Positions 56,900-64,000 of a stretch of DNA of 64,000 nucleotides are shown here, piece after piece. The stretch spans positions 2,432,001-2,496,000 of the forward strand of contig OZ245015.1 of the NCBI GenBank assembly GCA_965223705.1, read 5' to 3'. Numbering within the stretch: the first letter of the stretch is position 1; every line of letters starts with the position of its first letter. The notes beneath the pieces were generated by a model. It ran no database searches, was not told the DNA's origin, and saw nothing but the letters and a program-made list of their open reading frames with translations. Origin of the DNA: Myxococcota bacterium. GTDB lineage: Bacteria > Myxococcota_A > UBA9160 > UBA6930. The translations under genes and the position numbers were made by a program.

Positions 56900-59353
56900 T
56901 TAAACCCGGATCCTCTCGTTGCGCGGATCGTACATCGGGCGCAGCGAGGCGCGCGCCGCGAACCGACGATGTTCGACGTCGATTTCGAAGCGACCGCTCT
57001 CGAGGAACGCGCGATCGACGCCACCGTCGTGGCGCACGTAGCCGAGGGCCATGGCGGCACCGAGGGTGTGTCCGTACCCAGCAGAGCTCGTCAAGCCGAC
57101 CAGTTCGCCGTCGCGAAGAATCGGCTCATTGTGAAACAGCTGCGGTTCGGGATCCTCGAGGAGAAACTGGACCAAACGGCGTGTCAAGGGCTTTCCCCGC
57201 TTCTCGAGCAAGGCGTCTCGCCCGATAAACCCGCCGGGCTTGTCCCAAGCGCACGTGAACGCCAGGCCGGATTCGAGTGGTGTGTCTTCGGGCCCAATGT
57301 CGTGCGCCCACTCTCGATAGCCCTTCTCGATGCGCAGCGAGTTCAGCGCGTGGTATCCACAGTGCTTTAGGTCGAAGGCGCGTCCCTCCTCGACGAGCCG
57401 GTCGTAGACGGGCAGCGCGTACTCGGTGGGAACGTAGAGCTCGAACCCGAGCTCTCCGGTGTACGAGACACGCATGGCGGTGAGGCGTTGGTAGCCGACC
57501 TCGAGTTCGCGCCACGTCCCGAACGGGAAGACGGAATCGTCCAGCGGATCTCGCGTCAAACGGGCGAGCAGATCTCGAGATTTCGGGCCCTGTAGATTCA
57601 GCATCACGTAAGCGGTGGTCACATCCGTCGTGACGCAGCGCTGCTCTTTGGGCAAGTGACGCCGGAGCCACGCGTCGACGTGCGTGTGAGTGAACGCAGG
57701 AGTCACGATGAGGAACGCGTCCTCGGCCATGCGCGAGATCGTTACGTCCGCCTCGATCCCGCCCCGCTCGTTCAGGAACTGGGTGTAGACCAAGTCTCCG
57801 ACCGGCATGTCGAGATCGGCGGTCGCGAGCCGATTCAAGCCCGCCAGCGCGTCGGCCCCCTGGACGAGGATTTTTGAAAAGGACGTCTGTTCGAACACGC
57901 CGACGCCTTCGCGGACGGCGCGATGCTCTTCGGCACTTCGATGAAACCAGTTCGTCTTGCCCCAGCCGTATTCGTATTCCGCCGACTCCCCGGCCTCGGC
58001 GTACCAGTTCGGCCGCTCCCACCCCGCTGATTCGCCGAAGCACGCCCCCACGGCCGCCACGCGGTCGTGAAGAATCGACTTCTTGACGTTCCGCGCCGTC
58101 TCCCATTGGCGCGCCGGCCAGTGGTGTTGGTACGCGATCCCCAGGGATTCGACGATACGGTCGCTCAGGTAGGCGAGGTTGTTGCGGAAGGGATGCATCC
58201 GTTGAAGATCGACATCCCAAACTTCCATCGGCGGATGTCCGTCGACGATCCAGTGCGCCATCACATGGCCAACGCCGCCGCCGGACAGAATTCCCAGCGA
58301 ATTGAAGCCCGCCGCCACAAAGAAGTTGTCGAGGTTGGGCGCTTCGCCCATCAGGTAGTTGTGATCCGGTGTAAACGACTCGGGACCGCAGAAGAACTGG
58401 CGGATCCCGACATCGTAGAGCGCGGGAATTCTCGCCATGGCCTTTTCGATGTACGGCTCCATGCGCTCCCAATCGGGCGACAGCTCGTCGAAACAGAACG
58501 CGTCCGGGATACCGTCGACGCCCCAGGTCGCGGCGACCGGCTCGAAGAAGCCGAGCAGGATCTTGCCCCCGGCTTCCTCTCGTGCGTAAGCGGATTTTTC
58601 GGGGTTGCGAAGGATCGGGAGCATGTTGTGCACGCCCTCGATCGGTTCGGATATGAGGTAGTAGTGTTCGGCGGCCTGGAGCGGCACGTCGACGCCGGCC
58701 ATCTTGCCGATCTCCCGTCCCCACATTCCCCCGCAGTTGACCACGTACTCCGAGAGAATGCGCCCGCGTTCGGTCTCGACGCCGACGGCGCGACCGTCTT
58801 GGGTCAGCACGCCGGTTACCGCGGTGTCCTCGAAGAGGAGCGCGCCTTTTTGGGAAGCTCCCTTCATCAAGGCCTGGGTGACGTCCGTCGGGTTCGCCCG
58901 ACCGTCCTTCGGGAAATAGAAGCCAGCCTCGACGTCGGAGACGTCCGCGAGGGGCCACATCTCCTTCATCTGCGCGGCGCTGATCTCTTCGTTCTCGACC
59001 CCGAAAACCCGCGCCAGTGCGGTGCCACGTCGCATCTCGCGAACCTTTTCCGGGCTCTCGGCGATTTGAATCGAGCCGCAGCGCAGAAACCCGGTGGCCT
59101 GCCCGGTCTCCTGCTCCAGTCGGTCGTAGAGATCTTGGGTGTACTTCGCGAGCCAAGTCTGGCTCTCGGAATCGCGCAGGGTCGTCAGCAGGCCGGCGGC
59201 ATGCCACGTGGTTCCGCTCGTGAGCTTCTTGCGCTCGAGCACGACCACTTCCTGGACCCCCAACCGGGTCAGGTGGTAAGCGACGGAGGCGCCGATGACA
59301 CCCCCTCCGATGACGACGACGTGGGCGTGGCTGGGAAGTTCTCGATCGGCCAA
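56900..59353 (-). CDS. GcvT-family FAD oxidoreductase (dimethylglycine/sarcosine dehydrogenase-like)
   Basis: IGGGVIG, SGTTWHAAG, GPESFTPD, GWERP.W, GELGFELY, LRIEKGY. Confidence 0.93.
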   Translation of the reverse strand: MADRELPSHAHVVVIGGGVIGASVAYHLTRLGVQEVVVLERKKLTSGTTWHAAGLLTTLRDSESQTWLAKYTQDLYDRLEQETGQATGFLRCGSIQIAESPEKVREMRRGTALARVFGVENEEISAAQMKEMWPLADVSDVEAGFYFPKDGRANPTDVTQALMKGASQKGALLFEDTAVTGVLTQDGRAVGVETERGRILSEYVVNCGGMWGREIGKMAGVDVPLQAAEHYYLISEPIEGVHNMLPILRNPEKSAYAREEAGGKILLGFFEPVAATWGVDGIPDAFCFDELSPDWERMEPYIEKAMARIPALYDVGIRQFFCGPESFTPDHNYLMGEAPNLDNFFVAAGFNSLGILSGGGVGHVMAHWIVDGHPPMEVWDVDLQRMHPFRNNLAYLSDRIVESLGIAYQHHWPARQWETARNVKKSILHDRVAAVGACFGESAGWERPNWYAEAGESAEYEYGWGKTNWFHRSAEEHRAVREGVGVFEQTSFSKILVQGADALAGLNRLATADLDMPVGDLVYTQFLNERGGIEADVTISRMAEDAFLIVTPAFTHTHVDAWLRRHLPKEQRCVTTDVTTAYVMLNLQGPKSRDLLARLTRDPLDDSVFPFGTWRELEVGYQRLTAMRVSYTGELGFELYVPTEYALPVYDRLVEEGRAFDLKHCGYHALNSLRIEKGYREWAHDIGPEDTPLESGLAFTCAWDKPGGFIGRDALLEKRGKPLTRRLVQFLLEDPEPQLFHNEPILRDGELVGLTSSAGYGHTLGAAMALGYVRHDGGVDRAFLESGRFEIDVEHRRFAARASLRPMYDPRNERIRV

Positions 59354-59424
59354 ACGGGTCTCCTCGCGAACGAGACGATCGCTCCGTCCCGTTCGGAGCC
59401 CATGGTAACCCGGTGGGGGTTGGC

Positions 59425-59691
59425 TTAGCTGACCGCGGAAGCGTCCTCGGATTGCTTGGGAAGCGTGTAGCCCTCTTTACGACCGAGCTCGCGCAGCTCG
59501 GCCAAGAGTCGAACCGACAGGTGCTGCATGGCTTCGAGGCGCTTCTTCCCGGTCATGAAAGACGTCTCGCAAGCGTCGGTTTCAATGCACAGAGCGCAGA
59601 ACGGAAGGCGATCTTGCTTGCGAATGCCCGGATAGATCTCGAGCAGTCGATCGGTCTTCGTTCCACAGAAAGCACAGGTATCGGATCGCAT
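59425..59691 (-). CDS. Small hypothetical protein with a CxxC...CxxC zinc-ribbon-like motif
   Basis: CAFC and CALC; GAGGGAG SD. Confidence 0.65.
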   Translation of the reverse strand: MRSDTCAFCGTKTDRLLEIYPGIRKQDRLPFCALCIETDACETSFMTGKKRLEAMQHLSVRLLAELRELGRKEGYTLPKQSEDASAVS

Positions 59692-59749
59692 GGCGTATCT
59701 CCCTCGTCTCAGGGAGTGCCCAAACGGCGCCTCTTCGTGACGAAAACCG

Positions 59750-60838
59750 TCAGTTTTTCAGAGAGTTTCTGGCCGATGGAAAGGAATTGATTCCCAGTTG
59801 CTCCCGGAAGTCCTCGCTGTCGCGTATGAACTGCTCCTCGAGGGGAATTCCTAGAGCGTTGGCGATCCGGTCGTTCTTGCTGAAGTTCGCTGCGATGATC
59901 GCCGCCGAGACGAGGCCTTCGGGCGAGACTTCTGCCGCGACGCGCCGCCGCGCCTCCTCGAGGTCCCCTTCCGTCGCGGATCCGATCAACGCGTCGGCGA
60001 ACTGAAGGAGAGCCTCTCCCTGGGGGACGCCGATCGGCTTCTTCGAGTCGACGAGCCCCGCGAGGTCCACGTCGTACGACTCGGACTTGGCGCTCTCACG
60101 GAGCACCACCGCGTGGGAAGTCGTTCAGTAGAAGCATTCGTTCAGCGCCGACACCCTCCCGGCGACCAGCTCGACTTGCGATCGGGAGAGACCGGGACAG
60201 TGGGAATAGGAGAAATCGAAGAAGAACTCGAGCGGCAAGTACTGCGCGTCGCCCAGCGCCATGTTCCGCCTGGCCTCGTCGGGCGCGAGGCTCAGCGCGC
60301 GGTAGATGAACGGTTGCATGGCGTCGCCATAGATGGCTCGTCCTTCATCCCCGCCCCGCCGACCGCAGGGAATGCTCGGTACGAACGCCCCTTCGTCGAT
60401 CGCCTTCTCCGGGCGCCGACCCGCGGGTTTTCCCGCCGACGCCTCGGGAAGGGAGACGCTCGGGACACCGATGCCCCGTGCGAACACATCGTGATTCACG
60501 ATGCGGGACACGACGCCGACGACCTCGACGCAGGCGGCGTCGCCGATCTCGGCCAACACGGGCTCGATGCGCTTGTCGTCGAGCTCCTGTGGACGCGCGG
60601 CGACATCGTGGACCCACGCCCGAACCGTATCGGACAGTCGACCGGCGGGTGGCGTTTCATCGCTCCCGGCGGATGAGAACCCCGCCGCGCACCGGGCGGC
60701 GCGGGCTTCGAGTGCGATCGCGCGGCGATCCGCACCGTCCCAGTATTCACCGGCCCGCGTGCACGCTTCGAGATCATCGCCGTGCAAGCGGATCAGCGGA
60801 GCGGGAACGGGCAGCAGTGCGTCGCTGTAGACACGCAT
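59750..60838 (-). CDS. AhpD/CMD-like protein, candidate selenoprotein (Sec238, CxxU)
   Basis: ORFs 60125-60838 and 59750-60109 are in frame. Reading through TGA 60127-60125 gives QVELVAGRVSALNECFY-U-TTSH, matching the AhpD E-x-C-x-Y-C-xxx-H motif. Confidence 0.88.
60097..60115 (-). promoter_or_regulatory. Candidate bacterial SECIS of the AhpD-like gene
   Basis: CACGCGG-TGGTG-CTCCGTG imperfect hairpin starting 9 nt after the UGA, with a G-rich loop. Confidence 0.6.
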
Positions 60839-60865
60839 CGTCAGCTCCTCAGTTGCCGAGCGGCG

Positions 60866-60875
60866 ATGCTACCAT
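60866..60875. promoter_or_regulatory. Overlapping bidirectional extended -10 elements
   Basis: Plus strand TGcTACCAT and minus strand TGgTAGCAT lie on the same bases, with an SD downstream on each side. Confidence 0.55.
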
Positions 60876-60903
60876 GCTGCCGGGGTACGTCTCGGAGGTT
60901 CCC

Positions 60904-62070
60904 ATGACGACGGTGTTATTCGACGATCGCGCGACCGAAACGAGCGCGGCGACGACGCGCGGCGACGCTTGCTGGGTCGTTGCGCGTGAGCTCCCGGACC
61001 TCACCGGCTGGGAGCACAAACCCGAAGGCGTGTGCCGCGACGAGATGTGCGTCCCGGTCCCTTCGGGCGCGTCGTGGCTCGACGGCGACCTCTTCAACCT
61101 CCATGCATTCGCCGCGCATCGCGGACAGGCGGCAGCGTACGATTCGGCCACCGACACGTGGTCCTTCGGCCCCCCCTCGGGCTCGATGCTCCGGACGGGG
61201 TTCGCCCCGGACTTCGAGTTGCCCGACTTCGACGGAAAACTCCACCGGCTGTCCAACTACCGGGGCAAGAAAGTCCTTCTGATGACGTGGGCCAGCTGGT
61301 GAGGCTGCCGTTACGACCTGCCGGTCTGGCAGGTTCTTCAAGACGAAATGGCCGATCGCGGGTTCACCGTTGTCGCCGTCGCCCTCGATACGGCCGGCGC
61401 GAAAGCAGCGCAATCGTTCGCTTCTGCCACCGACGCGGCCGACGTGCCGCCGCCGATTCGCGCGATCATGGGTTGGAGCGACGAGCTCTGGGACGCCGCA
61501 CGTCGTCCGACCTACCCGAGCTTGCTCGATACGCGGCACCTCGTTGCGCAGCGTTACGACATCACCAACGTTCCGTCCGCGACGTGGATCGATGAAGAGG
61601 GGCGTATCGTGCGTCCGCCCGAAAGTGCCGGTTCCCACGACGTCGTGCGGCACATCGACATCGAGACTTTTGAAGTTCCGCCCGACGTCGTCGAGCGGGG
61701 CCGCGAAGTACGCGCGCGCTACCTCGATGCCGTTCGCGACTGGATCCTCCTCGGGCCGAATAGCCGCTTCGCCCTGACCCCGGAGGAAGTGCAAGCGAGG
61801 CTTTCCGACGTGTCTCCCGAGGCGTCTCTCGCGGCTGCGAACTTCAGCTTGGGCTCCCATCTCTACGAGCTCGGTCATGCCGACGCGGCCAAGGCGTATC
61901 TCGAGGAAGCGGTTCGACTGCGTCCCGAGGCGTGGACCCACCTGCGCCAGAAAATCGCCGTTGCGAACGACGCGGCGGTCGGTGAGATCGCGGCCGATCC
62001 CGAGTACTGGCGCGCCGTACACGCGCTGGGCGATACGCCGTACTACCCGCCCATCGATATGCCGGAGTGA
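60904..62070 (+). CDS. Thioredoxin-fold AhpC/TlpA-like redoxin with TPR-like C-terminus, candidate selenoprotein (Sec133, UGC motif)
   Basis: APDFELPDFDGKLHRLSNYRGKKVLLMTWASW-TGA-GCRYDLPVWQ continues in frame into ORF 61348-62070 (GFTVVAVALD, ITNVP..TWIDEEGRIV); GGAGG SD. Confidence 0.92.
61315..61335 (+). promoter_or_regulatory. Candidate bacterial SECIS of the redoxin gene
   Basis: GACCTGCC-GGTCT-GGCAGGTT 8-bp stem 12 nt after the UGA; GGUCU loop resembles the E. coli fdhF SECIS apex. Confidence 0.85.
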
Positions 62071-63122
62071 CGCGCGGGGAGGTGTTGCCGCGCGTCGCTG
62101 TGATTCCCGGCGACGACGCCGCCCCGGAAGCCATGGAAGCCGCGATGCGGGTTCTCGAGGCGCTGGCACCGCCCGTCACATGGGAACGTCTGCCGGCGGG
62201 CGCCGAGCTCGGCGCGATGCCCGAAGCCTCGCGTGCGGCGTTCGTGGAAGAGCGCATCGATGCCGCGGATTCGGTTCTCTTTGGCGCGACCAACGGAACG
62301 ACTCCCGGCATCGTTCATATGCGCTGGGGCCGGCAGACTTTCGCGAACGTCCGACCGATTCGTTGGCGCCCCGGGTTTCGCTCCCCCTTGGCGGCGCCCG
62401 AATCCATGGACTACGTCATCGTCCGGGAGAACCTCGAGGACCTGTACGTCGGGGTGATGGGGGATCTCGCCGATCTCGTCGAGGCCGGTCTGACGAACCC
62501 GCGCTCCCGCGTCCCGAAATCGAGCGACGGGCGCTATGCCGCGAAGGTCATCACACGAGAGGGCACGGAGCGCGTCGCGCGTTTCTCGTGCGAGCTCGCG
62601 ATGCGTCGGCGCGGAAAGCTCACCGTGTCGGCAAAGACGAACATGCTGCCCGCCACGGATCGCTTCTTCTGCCGCATCGTGCGCGAAGTGGCTTCGGGGT
62701 ATCCCGAACTCGAGTTCGAGGAATTCATCGTCGACGACATGGCGAGCCGGTTGATCCAGAACCCGGGCGCACTCGACGTCCTGCTACTGCCGAACCTCTA
62801 CGGGGATATCCTGTCGGACGAGGCTGCGGCCACACTGGGAGGCCTCGGCCTCGCGCCCTCGGGTTGCTTCGGTGCCGACTTCGCGTATTTCGAACCGTCT
62901 CACGGAACTGCGCCCGACCTCGCGGGCACCGGCATGATCAACCCGACGGCCATGCTCCTCTCGGCCGCGATGCTCCTCGAACACCTCGGCTTGCCGGGCG
63001 ACGCCCTTCGCCTCGACGAAGCCGTCGGACGGGTCTACGCCGAAGGCAGGAGCCTCACCCGAGACCAGGGCGGCACCGCGGGCGCCGCCGCGTTCGCCGA
63101 GGCCGTGTGCGACGTGCTCTAG
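62067..63122 (+). CDS. Isocitrate/isopropylmalate dehydrogenase family protein
   Basis: FANVRP, VRENLEDLY, NLYGDILSD, EPSHGTAPD, INP.A.LLS; GTGA-coupled to the redoxin gene. Confidence 0.9.
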   Translation: MTRGEVLPRVAVIPGDDAAPEAMEAAMRVLEALAPPVTWERLPAGAELGAMPEASRAAFVEERIDAADSVLFGATNGTTPGIVHMRWGRQTFANVRPIRWRPGFRSPLAAPESMDYVIVRENLEDLYVGVMGDLADLVEAGLTNPRSRVPKSSDGRYAAKVITREGTERVARFSCELAMRRRGKLTVSAKTNMLPATDRFFCRIVREVASGYPELEFEEFIVDDMASRLIQNPGALDVLLLPNLYGDILSDEAAATLGGLGLAPSGCFGADFAYFEPSHGTAPDLAGTGMINPTAMLLSAAMLLEHLGLPGDALRLDEAVGRVYAEGRSLTRDQGGTAGAAAFAEAVCDVL

Positions 63123-63250
63123 GTGATACGCTTCGCGACCCAACCCGGAGGAAACTGAGTGGCAGCGGCAATGCCGGCGGGGAATCCGATCGAGGTCGCC
63201 TGCGGGAATTCACAGCCCCCGACCGCGCGGCGATGAAGAACGGGTAAGGC

Positions 63251-64000
63251 ATGGGAGAGTTCGCGGGACGCCGCGTCCTCATCACGGGATCGACCCGCGG
63301 AATCGGCAACGCCCTCGCTCGACACTTCATCCGCGAAGGGGCGAGCGTGGCCGTCCACGGTCGGCGCGCGGACACCGTCGAACAGGCGATGACCGAACTG
63401 GGCGCGACCTGCGGCGCTCACGGTGATCTCCAGTCTGCCGACGGATGCGCGTCGGTGGTCGCGGACGCACTTCGCGGACTGGGCGGCCTCGACACCCTCA
63501 TCAACAACGCCGGCGTGTTTCCCATCGCGAGCGTCGAGGACACCGACGAGGCGACTTGGGACGAGGCGATGGCCGCCAACGTCAAGAGCGCGTTTTTCGC
63601 GACCCGGGCCGCGCTCCCCGCGCTGCGCGAACGCGGGGGAGTGGTCATCAACCACGCTTCCATCGCGGGACTCATCGGGTTGTCAAACGTCGCCGCGTAC
63701 TGCGCTTCAAAGGGCGCCGTCGTCAATTTGACACGCGCTCTCGCCATGGAACTCGCGCCAGAAGTCCGCGTGAACTGCGTGTGTCCGACCACCGTCGACA
63801 ACGAGATGGGCTGGACCGGCTTTCGGCGGTCCGAGGATCCCGAGGCCGCCTACGCAGCGTTCGCCGAAGGGGCGAAGCTCAAACGCTTGGCCACCGAAGC
63901 GGACGTGGTCGAGGCGATCGCGTTTCTCGCGTCGCCCCGCGCGGCGTTCATGAACGGCGTGGCCCTACCTGTCGACGGCGGTAAATCCGCCGGGGCTTGA
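63251..64000 (+). CDS. Short-chain dehydrogenase/reductase
   Basis: TGSTRGIG, NNAG, YCASK, VDGG. Confidence 0.93.
   Translation: MGEFAGRRVLITGSTRGIGNALARHFIREGASVAVHGRRADTVEQAMTELGATCGAHGDLQSADGCASVVADALRGLGGLDTLINNAGVFPIASVEDTDEATWDEAMAANVKSAFFATRAALPALRERGGVVINHASIAGLIGLSNVAAYCASKGAVVNLTRALAMELAPEVRVNCVCPTTVDNEMGWTGFRRSEDPEAAYAAFAEGAKLKRLATEADVVEAIAFLASPRAAFMNGVALPVDGGKSAGA

Follow-up and report, generated by a model that had tools for sequence, protein, structure and literature searches.

Two probable selenoprotein genes of catalogued redox families arranged head to head in a Myxococcota genome

We have analysed a 64,000-nucleotide stretch of a Myxococcota bacterium genome (contig OZ245015.1 of assembly GCA_965223705.1, positions 2,432,001 to 2,496,000; called the window here, with positions counted from its first letter), in which two divergent genes between 59750 and 62070, referred to below as genes A and B, are each interrupted by one in-frame TGA. 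Our preferred reading, to which we assign a probability of about 80%, is that these are two intact selenoprotein genes of families already catalogued, placed head to head, which encode separate redox enzymes and possibly share a regulatory region. We hold with high confidence, on sequence evidence, that both TGAs are selenocysteine (Sec) codons, because the genome has the machinery for Sec decoding, the TGAs are conserved among relatives, homologues carry Cys at the same sites and hairpins are found downstream of the TGAs. From the machinery and the conservation we infer that Sec is actually inserted into both proteins.

Translation table 11 yields four open reading frame (ORF) fragments in this segment: 59750..60109 (119 residues) and 60125..60838 (237 residues) on the minus strand, and one ending at 61302 and another at 61348..62070 (240 residues) on the plus strand. 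Readthrough of TGA fuses these fragments into the two divergent genes. Gene A (60838..59750, minus strand) encodes a 362-residue AhpD-related selenoprotein of family NF041238 with a two-lobed, all-helical AhpD-type fold; its TGA (60127..60125, minus strand) corresponds to U238 in the motif NECFYUTTSH, giving a predicted redox centre of C235-F-Y-U238. Gene B (60904..62070, plus strand) encodes a three-domain selenoprotein of 388 residues, in which the TGA at 61300-61302 (plus strand) corresponds to U133 of the motif TWASWUGCR, and C135 is the second active-site residue. These assignments draw on the readthrough translations, on profile searches and on AlphaFold2 (AF2) models. The 65 bp between the two start codons (60839-60903) contain both of the Shine-Dalgarno-like sites that we read from the sequence, GAGGAG at 60845-60850 (minus strand) for gene A and GGAGG at 60894-60898 (plus strand) for gene B, and the starts of both genes match the N-termini of aligned homologues. 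A scan of 59300-63300 for sigma-70-like promoters found none, with 0.3 expected, a result that is uninformative for this organism. The initial annotation of the window had merged the four fragments into two divergent genes 65 bp apart, and the coordinates and readthrough translations agree with it in every detail that could be checked.

The stop at the Sec codon of gene A was kept in all 113 matches found among 193 genomes of the same order, and all 80 metagenome loci kept the TGA. In a 401-genome sample of the phylum, TGA was present in 61 of 62 above-cut-off matches, the exception being a fragment that covers profile positions 1-157 only and that we judged to fall short of the Sec position. 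A pattern scan of genome contigs with a single query matched 85 stretches, none of them a relative. For gene B, 50 of 51 rows from the search of the phylum had TGA, and the remaining row represents only the second, C-terminal half of gene B of the window itself; TGA was likewise found at 30 of 30 loci from the order and at 80 of 80 genome loci; the labels in this last set include Myxococcota, Binataceae, Gammaproteobacteria, Burkholderiales, Actinomycetota, Rokubacteria and others. Full-length homologues carry Cys at these sites. We picked by eye, from the 150 listed matches of an exhaustive search, 30 gene A homologues that are near full length and span residue 238, and observed C-x-x-C in 28 and Gly at this site in the other two. 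Likewise, 12 gene B homologues picked among the full-coverage matches of 120 listed all read W-A/G-S-W/Y/F-C-G/A-C. Also, one relative of gene B within the order, at locus L183 (G412:C101), has TGC instead of TGA at the Sec codon (locus position 1098, minus strand); among the gene B relatives of the order with a match that crosses the active site, no other lacks an in-frame stop. The alternation of Cys and TGA that had been anticipated for both genes is borne out by these alignments, as is the placement of the single in-frame TGA of each gene at a catalytic-Cys position.

The genome to which the window belongs (4.56 Mb in 2 contigs, 95% complete, 64.7% G+C) has all the components of Sec decoding that were looked for, namely selA (426.7 bits), selB (320.7 bits, cut-off 242.25), selD (269.6 bits, cut-off 125) and one tRNA-SeC(tca) among its 50 tRNAs. 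Outside the window, selD (C1:22501-23403) and selB (C1:25684-27564) lie about 2 kb apart, and the selD match sits within an open frame of 736 residues, far longer than a plain SelD, which suggests a fusion protein, for example of the Ndh-SelD type. Fusions of this type are mentioned in the Global Ocean Sampling (GOS) paper (PMC2398784). A filter for selenoprotein genes throughout the genome, based on TGA and on G+C content at third codon positions, returned 202 candidates that were mostly noise, and it missed gene B.

A hairpin had been reported after each TGA, and we found an 8-bp stem for both genes. The SECIS-like (selenocysteine insertion sequence-like) hairpin of gene A (60108..60088, minus strand) has the loop CGUGA and a stem that begins 16 nt past the UGA; that of gene B (61315-61335, plus strand) has the loop GGUCU and a stem that begins 12 nt past the UGA. 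A bacterial SECIS is a hairpin located shortly after the UGA with G or U in its apical loop. Both genes have a hairpin of this description; that of gene A covaries, and that of gene B is confounded with coding. Taken alone, the folding energies are within chance for gene A (z -1.31; 20 of 200 shuffles as good) and for gene B (z -1.00; 26 of 200).

For gene A, we used an ungapped alignment of 125 sequences, 120 of them distinct, in which the helix stands at a fixed distance. The helix was paired in 84.0% of cells as against 76.2% in shuffles, with none of 500 shuffles reaching 84.0%, and at most 57.5% of cells were paired when the partner strand was slid. Five of the eight pairs change on both sides, and the covariation score was 0.263 versus 0.152. 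RNAalifold returned only 5 pairs from this alignment, at a weak energy of -1.06 kcal/mol; we judged the covariation on the pair counts rather than on that result. It should be noted that the hairpin region is coding, so that amino-acid constraints contribute to the pairing. We also observed that numerous contigs from other organisms or from paralogues could be aligned at 80% identity or more only within 60091-60174, the stretch that holds the TGA and the gene A hairpin, and that none of their listed differences falls on the TGA itself. Alignment confined to so short a stretch is a sign of constraint at the nucleotide level.

For gene B, the hairpin core CTG[CT]C-N4-6-GGCAG was present, by a strict pattern, in 74 of 80 relatives. 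The TGC-bearing locus L183 still has the hairpin CTGCC-GGCGT-GGCAG. Since the stem is built from the codons of a conserved L-P-x-W-Q sequence and is still there in the TGC form, it does not count as independent evidence for Sec; L183 looks like either a recent change from Sec to Cys or a case in which the L-P-x-W-Q codons give rise to the hairpin incidentally. At locus L212, a synonymous double change (TTG...CAA) preserves a pair in the gene B stem. An Rfam scan of 59700-62100 found no model for either hairpin and gave chance-level matches only (CRISPR-DR29, E 0.52; veev_FSE, E 6.3).

Protein A belongs to NF041238 (AhpD_rel_CFYUT, 'alkylhydroperoxidase-related (seleno)protein'), which it matches at 302.8 bits (cut-off 175) over residues 16-354 and profile positions 6-356 of 357; in a six-frame search the gene scored 294.1 bits. 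Gene A is like the members of this family in covering the whole 357-position profile, in the signature C-F-Y-U-T and in the in-frame TGA. It is nevertheless a divergent member, the best relative in the 193 genomes of the order being 44% identical, and it falls in a lower-scoring subgroup (294 bits as against 410-485 for most others). In a 2026 review, NF041238 is identified with the 'hypothetical protein 1' that the Sargasso Sea survey of 2005 described. The Pfam CMD model gave 24.4 bits on a short stretch around the motif (residues 215-250). The AF2 model of protein A (predicted local distance difference test, pLDDT, 94.2; predicted template modelling score, pTM, 0.94) is all-helical with two lobes, one of which resembled the AhpD-core structures 2prr (E 6e-5) and 6k40 in a Foldseek search; Sestrin2 was matched over the whole length at lower confidence. 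We also considered AhpD proper and rejected it, the score against TIGR00777 being 16.7 with a cut-off of 191.95. In Mycobacterium tuberculosis, AhpD reduces the peroxiredoxin AhpC through its CxxC centre. Protein A shares with that protein the AhpD-core fold and a CMD domain whose centre reads C-x-x-[C/U]. In contrast to it, protein A is twice as long, has two lobes and falls short of the AhpD profile, and the neighbouring protein B is no peroxiredoxin. Sec238 stands at the second position of C-x-x-C, and the equivalent Cys in M. tuberculosis AhpD is the nucleophile.

Protein B fits the W-A-x-x-U-G-C motif of NF041054 ('ResA-like WAxxUGC motif-containing protein', WAxxUGC_long) and, scored with C in place of U, reached 292.9 bits, split over two stretches, where the cut-off is 300. 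As it is 7 bits under this cut-off, we file protein B in the broader UGC-containing peroxiredoxin (Prx)/TlpA-like family, in a subgroup that is sister to the NCBIfam equivalog. At about residues 176-201 (window positions of about 61429-61506), after the active-site helix, there is an insertion of about 25 residues (…DVPPPIRAIMGWSDELW…) which, by eye, is common to protein B and three Cys-form homologues (P0126, P0127 and P0129) and missing from the other aligned members; it would probably explain why the NF041054 match is in two stretches. The GOS survey of 2008 (PMC2398784), in its Table 2, lists 'Prx-like (UGC-containing)' selenoproteins with pfam00578, the motif UGC, 46 sequences and 855 Cys homologues. 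Protein B has the pfam00578 domain and the U-G-C motif by which this group is defined there, and gene B resembles it further in its three-domain architecture, in the motif W-A-x-x-U-G-C and in the CUGCC...GGCAG hairpin that comes after the TGA. The same table supports the statement in the initial annotation that AhpD-like and redoxin-UGC motif types had been reported separately in metagenome surveys.

The Pfam models AhpC-TSA (PF00578; 56.3 bits, cut-off 26) and Redoxin (48.5 bits) match protein B, and GSHPx gave 23.2 bits on residues 104-160, below its cut-off of 27; the sequence ...ASxUG... presumably resembles the active sites of glutathione peroxidases. Assignment to the peroxiredoxins of PrxQ/BCP type was tried and rejected (NF053650, 20.1 against 260; PRK09437, 15.3 against 140). 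Also below cut-off were the scores for ResA (56.3 against 170) and TlpA (54.1 against 230). In the AF2 model (pLDDT 87.3), protein B consists of an N-terminal beta-rich domain with invariant C44 and C49, a thioredoxin fold at about residues 93-288 and a C-terminal helical, TPR-like tail. The thioredoxin fold is closest to DsbE/ResA/TlpA: Foldseek matched ResA with E 7.8e-10, and VIA-align gave Z 17.0 for 3gl3_A (root-mean-square deviation 2.0, 139 aligned) and Z 15.8 for ResA 2f9s_A, with peroxiredoxins at Z 13-11. These structural matches span residues 93-288 only. With the ResA/TlpA/DsbE(CcmG) proteins (1su9, 2f9s, 3gl3, 1jfu), protein B has in common the thioredoxin-type fold and an active site at the position of W-x-x-W-C; unlike them, it has U-G-C, with one intervening residue, rather than C-x-x-C, and extra N- and C-terminal domains, and inspection by eye showed neither a membrane anchor nor a signal peptide. 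The original description as an AhpD-like CxxU protein and a UGC redoxin, both of selenoprotein families, was upheld. Protein A is not a true AhpD, and protein B is of ResA/TlpA type rather than a peroxiredoxin.

If the TGAs are decoded as we propose, SelB and tRNA-Sec would read each UGA as Sec, guided by the hairpin a few codons downstream. Protein A would be a cytoplasmic protein with a two-lobed AhpD fold and C-x-x-U where relatives have C-x-x-C. Protein B would be a cytoplasmic three-domain protein with a ResA/TlpA-type thioredoxin fold and U-G-C where relatives have C-G-C. The cytoplasmic location of both would fit the sequences, in which no signal peptide was seen by eye. Each protein is most likely a thiol/selenol-disulfide oxidoreductase in which Sec would attack and the nearby Cys would resolve, the attacking Sec being the second residue of C-x-x-C in protein A and the first residue of the W-C-G-C site in protein B. 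The single residue between U and C in protein B would impose a strained Se-S ring; by analogy with C-x-C motifs, and as speculation, this might make for a more oxidising, isomerase-like centre. Both genes may be regulated from the 65-bp region. Ocean and soil metagenomes are rich in members of both families, and we know of no substrate for either.

The initial annotation had gone further and proposed that proteins A and B form a dedicated, co-regulated relay, in which electrons would pass between the C-x-x-U protein and the U-G-C redoxin and a peroxide or disulfide would then be reduced. We regard this as unlikely. The genes do lie head to head and 65 bp apart, and both Sec residues would be at the nucleophilic position of a dithiol-type motif. 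There is also a precedent of sorts: the GOS paper of 2008 (PMC2398784) describes a single read on which a Prx-like 1 and an AhpD-like 2 selenoprotein gene are neighbours, and the 2026 review says that colocation of this kind may hint at a shared redox process. These earlier neighbours are like the present ones in being two thiol-oxidoreductase-type genes side by side in a small phylogenetic group. They differ in that here the genes are of the NF041238 and UGC types and are divergent rather than in one operon. The GOS paper notes Prx/SelW selenoprotein gene pairs as well. In the literature searched, supplements left aside, we found no text on this particular A-B pair and no occurrence of the term 'WAxxUGC'.

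Against a relay as a general unit stands the distribution of the pair. We found no B-like gene beside gene A relatives at 30 loci from the phylum sample, 29 from the order and 80 from metagenomes (0 of 139), and no A-like gene beside gene B relatives at 29 loci from the order and 80 genome loci with 4-kb flanks (0 of 109). At least 500 bp upstream of the anchor was available at 30/30, 27/29, 60/80, 27/29 and 76/80 of these loci, respectively, and the phylum and order sets share some genomes. By coordinate comparison, members of the two families are never closer than 12.6 kb in genomes of the phylum sample, the window's own excepted. Upstream of the three gene B orthologues that are closest among species-representative genomes (58-59% identity), the DNA is unrelated, and a search beside the gene B orthologues L044-L072 for the window's neighbouring genes (DMGDH-like, an 88-residue ORF and Iso_dh) gave no matches. 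Co-occurrence of the two families at genome level is also loose in the sampled class, where 24 genomes have both, 21 have only A and 8 have only B, related genomes not being independent. When ORFs of at least 80 residues near the gene A family were clustered, with TGA not read through, the largest cluster of similar ORFs took in 14 of the 139 loci and, judged by eye, probably consists of spurious GC-rich ORFs; a GST-like neighbour was present at 13 of 139. A second paralogue of gene A in the window's genome has, by eye, no thioredoxin-fold neighbour. Finally, protein B fails the peroxiredoxin models and protein A the AhpD model, so that the AhpD-AhpC precedent cannot be transferred by homology. 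The reduction of AhpC-type peroxiredoxins by AhpD, which had been offered as a precedent for the pair, is thus a weak analogy. Conserved synteny was not borne out beyond the closest relatives, and a co-regulated Se-dependent peroxide or thiol-reduction module is not supported as a general unit.

The adjacency is lineage-specific and not a property of either family, and the default reading is therefore of two separate enzymes rather than of an obligate couple. Some observations weigh against that default. Among the matches listed, two short contigs, from the closest relatives in metagenomes, appear to carry the pair again. A 3811-bp ENA contig holds an A N-terminal piece (P0005, 58%) together with N-terminal (P0401, 59%) and C-terminal (P0125, 72%) pieces of B, and an 8729-bp NCBI contig, labelled Myxococcales bacterium, holds an A piece (P0006, 62%, NNL84249.1) and a B piece (P0131, 73%, NNL84248.1). 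We took the pieces on each contig to be paired from matching contig sizes and, on the NCBI contig, consecutive accessions; their orientation and spacing are likewise inferred. The retention of the arrangement while gene A drifted to about 60% identity speaks to some extent for selection on adjacency. Also, Sec would be at the attacking position in both proteins, which makes direct exchange between A and B chemically plausible. The pair seems to be kept within a narrow lineage labelled Myxococcota and nowhere else that we examined.

These points leave room for a couple confined to that lineage, in which protein A would be the private reductase or oxidase of protein B through a Se-S or Se-Se bond and both genes would be controlled from the one 65-bp region; we think this quite improbable. 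Known selenoprotein operons include grdAB and prdBC. If the couple were real, it would be a small addition to these, a relay of a kind not yet characterised, and would leave the understanding of Sec decoding and of AhpD/TlpA chemistry unchanged. Our preference is still for two separate enzymes, whose genes may also have come to lie next to each other by chance. The biological value of the arrangement is modest, and a lineage that keeps both genes side by side provides a concrete and cheap hypothesis of electron exchange between A and B.

Much less credible is the reading of the TGAs as true stops, which would leave four small genes or two decayed pseudogenes. Table 11 does yield four ORFs, and in public gene calls each piece appears as a protein of its own. 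However, the family hidden Markov models run across the TGA, hundreds of relatives from different phyla have the TGA at precisely this codon with both flanks conserved, Cys homologues exist and the full Sec machinery is present; with these we consider true stops very improbable. The possibility that TGC or TGT was turned into TGA at these codons by an error of sequencing or assembly we regard as practically negligible, as contigs from the run of a second sample (X3) cover and repeat both TGAs with 0 and 1 differences (the one at 61371), which excludes an assembly error, and as the codon is TGA in the close and distant relatives examined.

Since both selenoprotein families are already catalogued, and neither protein is new, the finding is chiefly a correction of annotation. 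Both genes are truncated at the TGA by gene callers, and hundreds of half-proteins of this sort are found in public protein collections. The 120 listed protein-collection matches to gene A all have lengths of 205-258 residues and span no more than 65% of the query, and all 12 of them that we aligned end in ...NECFY. This is the splitting by standard gene calling that had been foreseen for these genes.

Several neighbouring features may be mentioned. An 88-residue ORF (59425-59691, minus strand) follows gene A in the same orientation, 58 bp downstream, and may be co-transcribed with it; it has two C-x-x-C pairs (C6/C9 and C32/C35), and a Pfam search with it gave no match. On the other side, a gene of the isocitrate/isopropylmalate-dehydrogenase family (62067-63122, plus strand; Iso_dh, 246.2 bits) has a candidate GTG start that overlaps the stop of gene B (GTGA), which suggests that these two genes are on one transcript.

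Elsewhere in the genome, outside the window, we observed a second NF041238 copy (C1:2351541-2352566; L184:4518-5585, plus strand), which is 39% identical to gene A and has one in-frame TGA. Its neighbours, named by eye, are methyltransferase-like, DJ-1/PfpI-like, GST-like and Sel1-repeat genes, with no thioredoxin-fold gene among them. Two shorter AhpD/CMD-like matches, at C1:1293477-1293887 and C1:3328058-3328603, also outside the window, each have one in-frame TGA and score 43.8 and 65.6 bits, respectively, against NF041238; the first reads ...ADCHYUTDGH..., with C-x-x-U, and both are likely to be further selenoprotein genes of CMD type. In another genome, locus L023 (G158:C80:59624-63673) carries two TGA-bearing NF041238 genes on opposite strands, tail to tail and about 1 kb apart.

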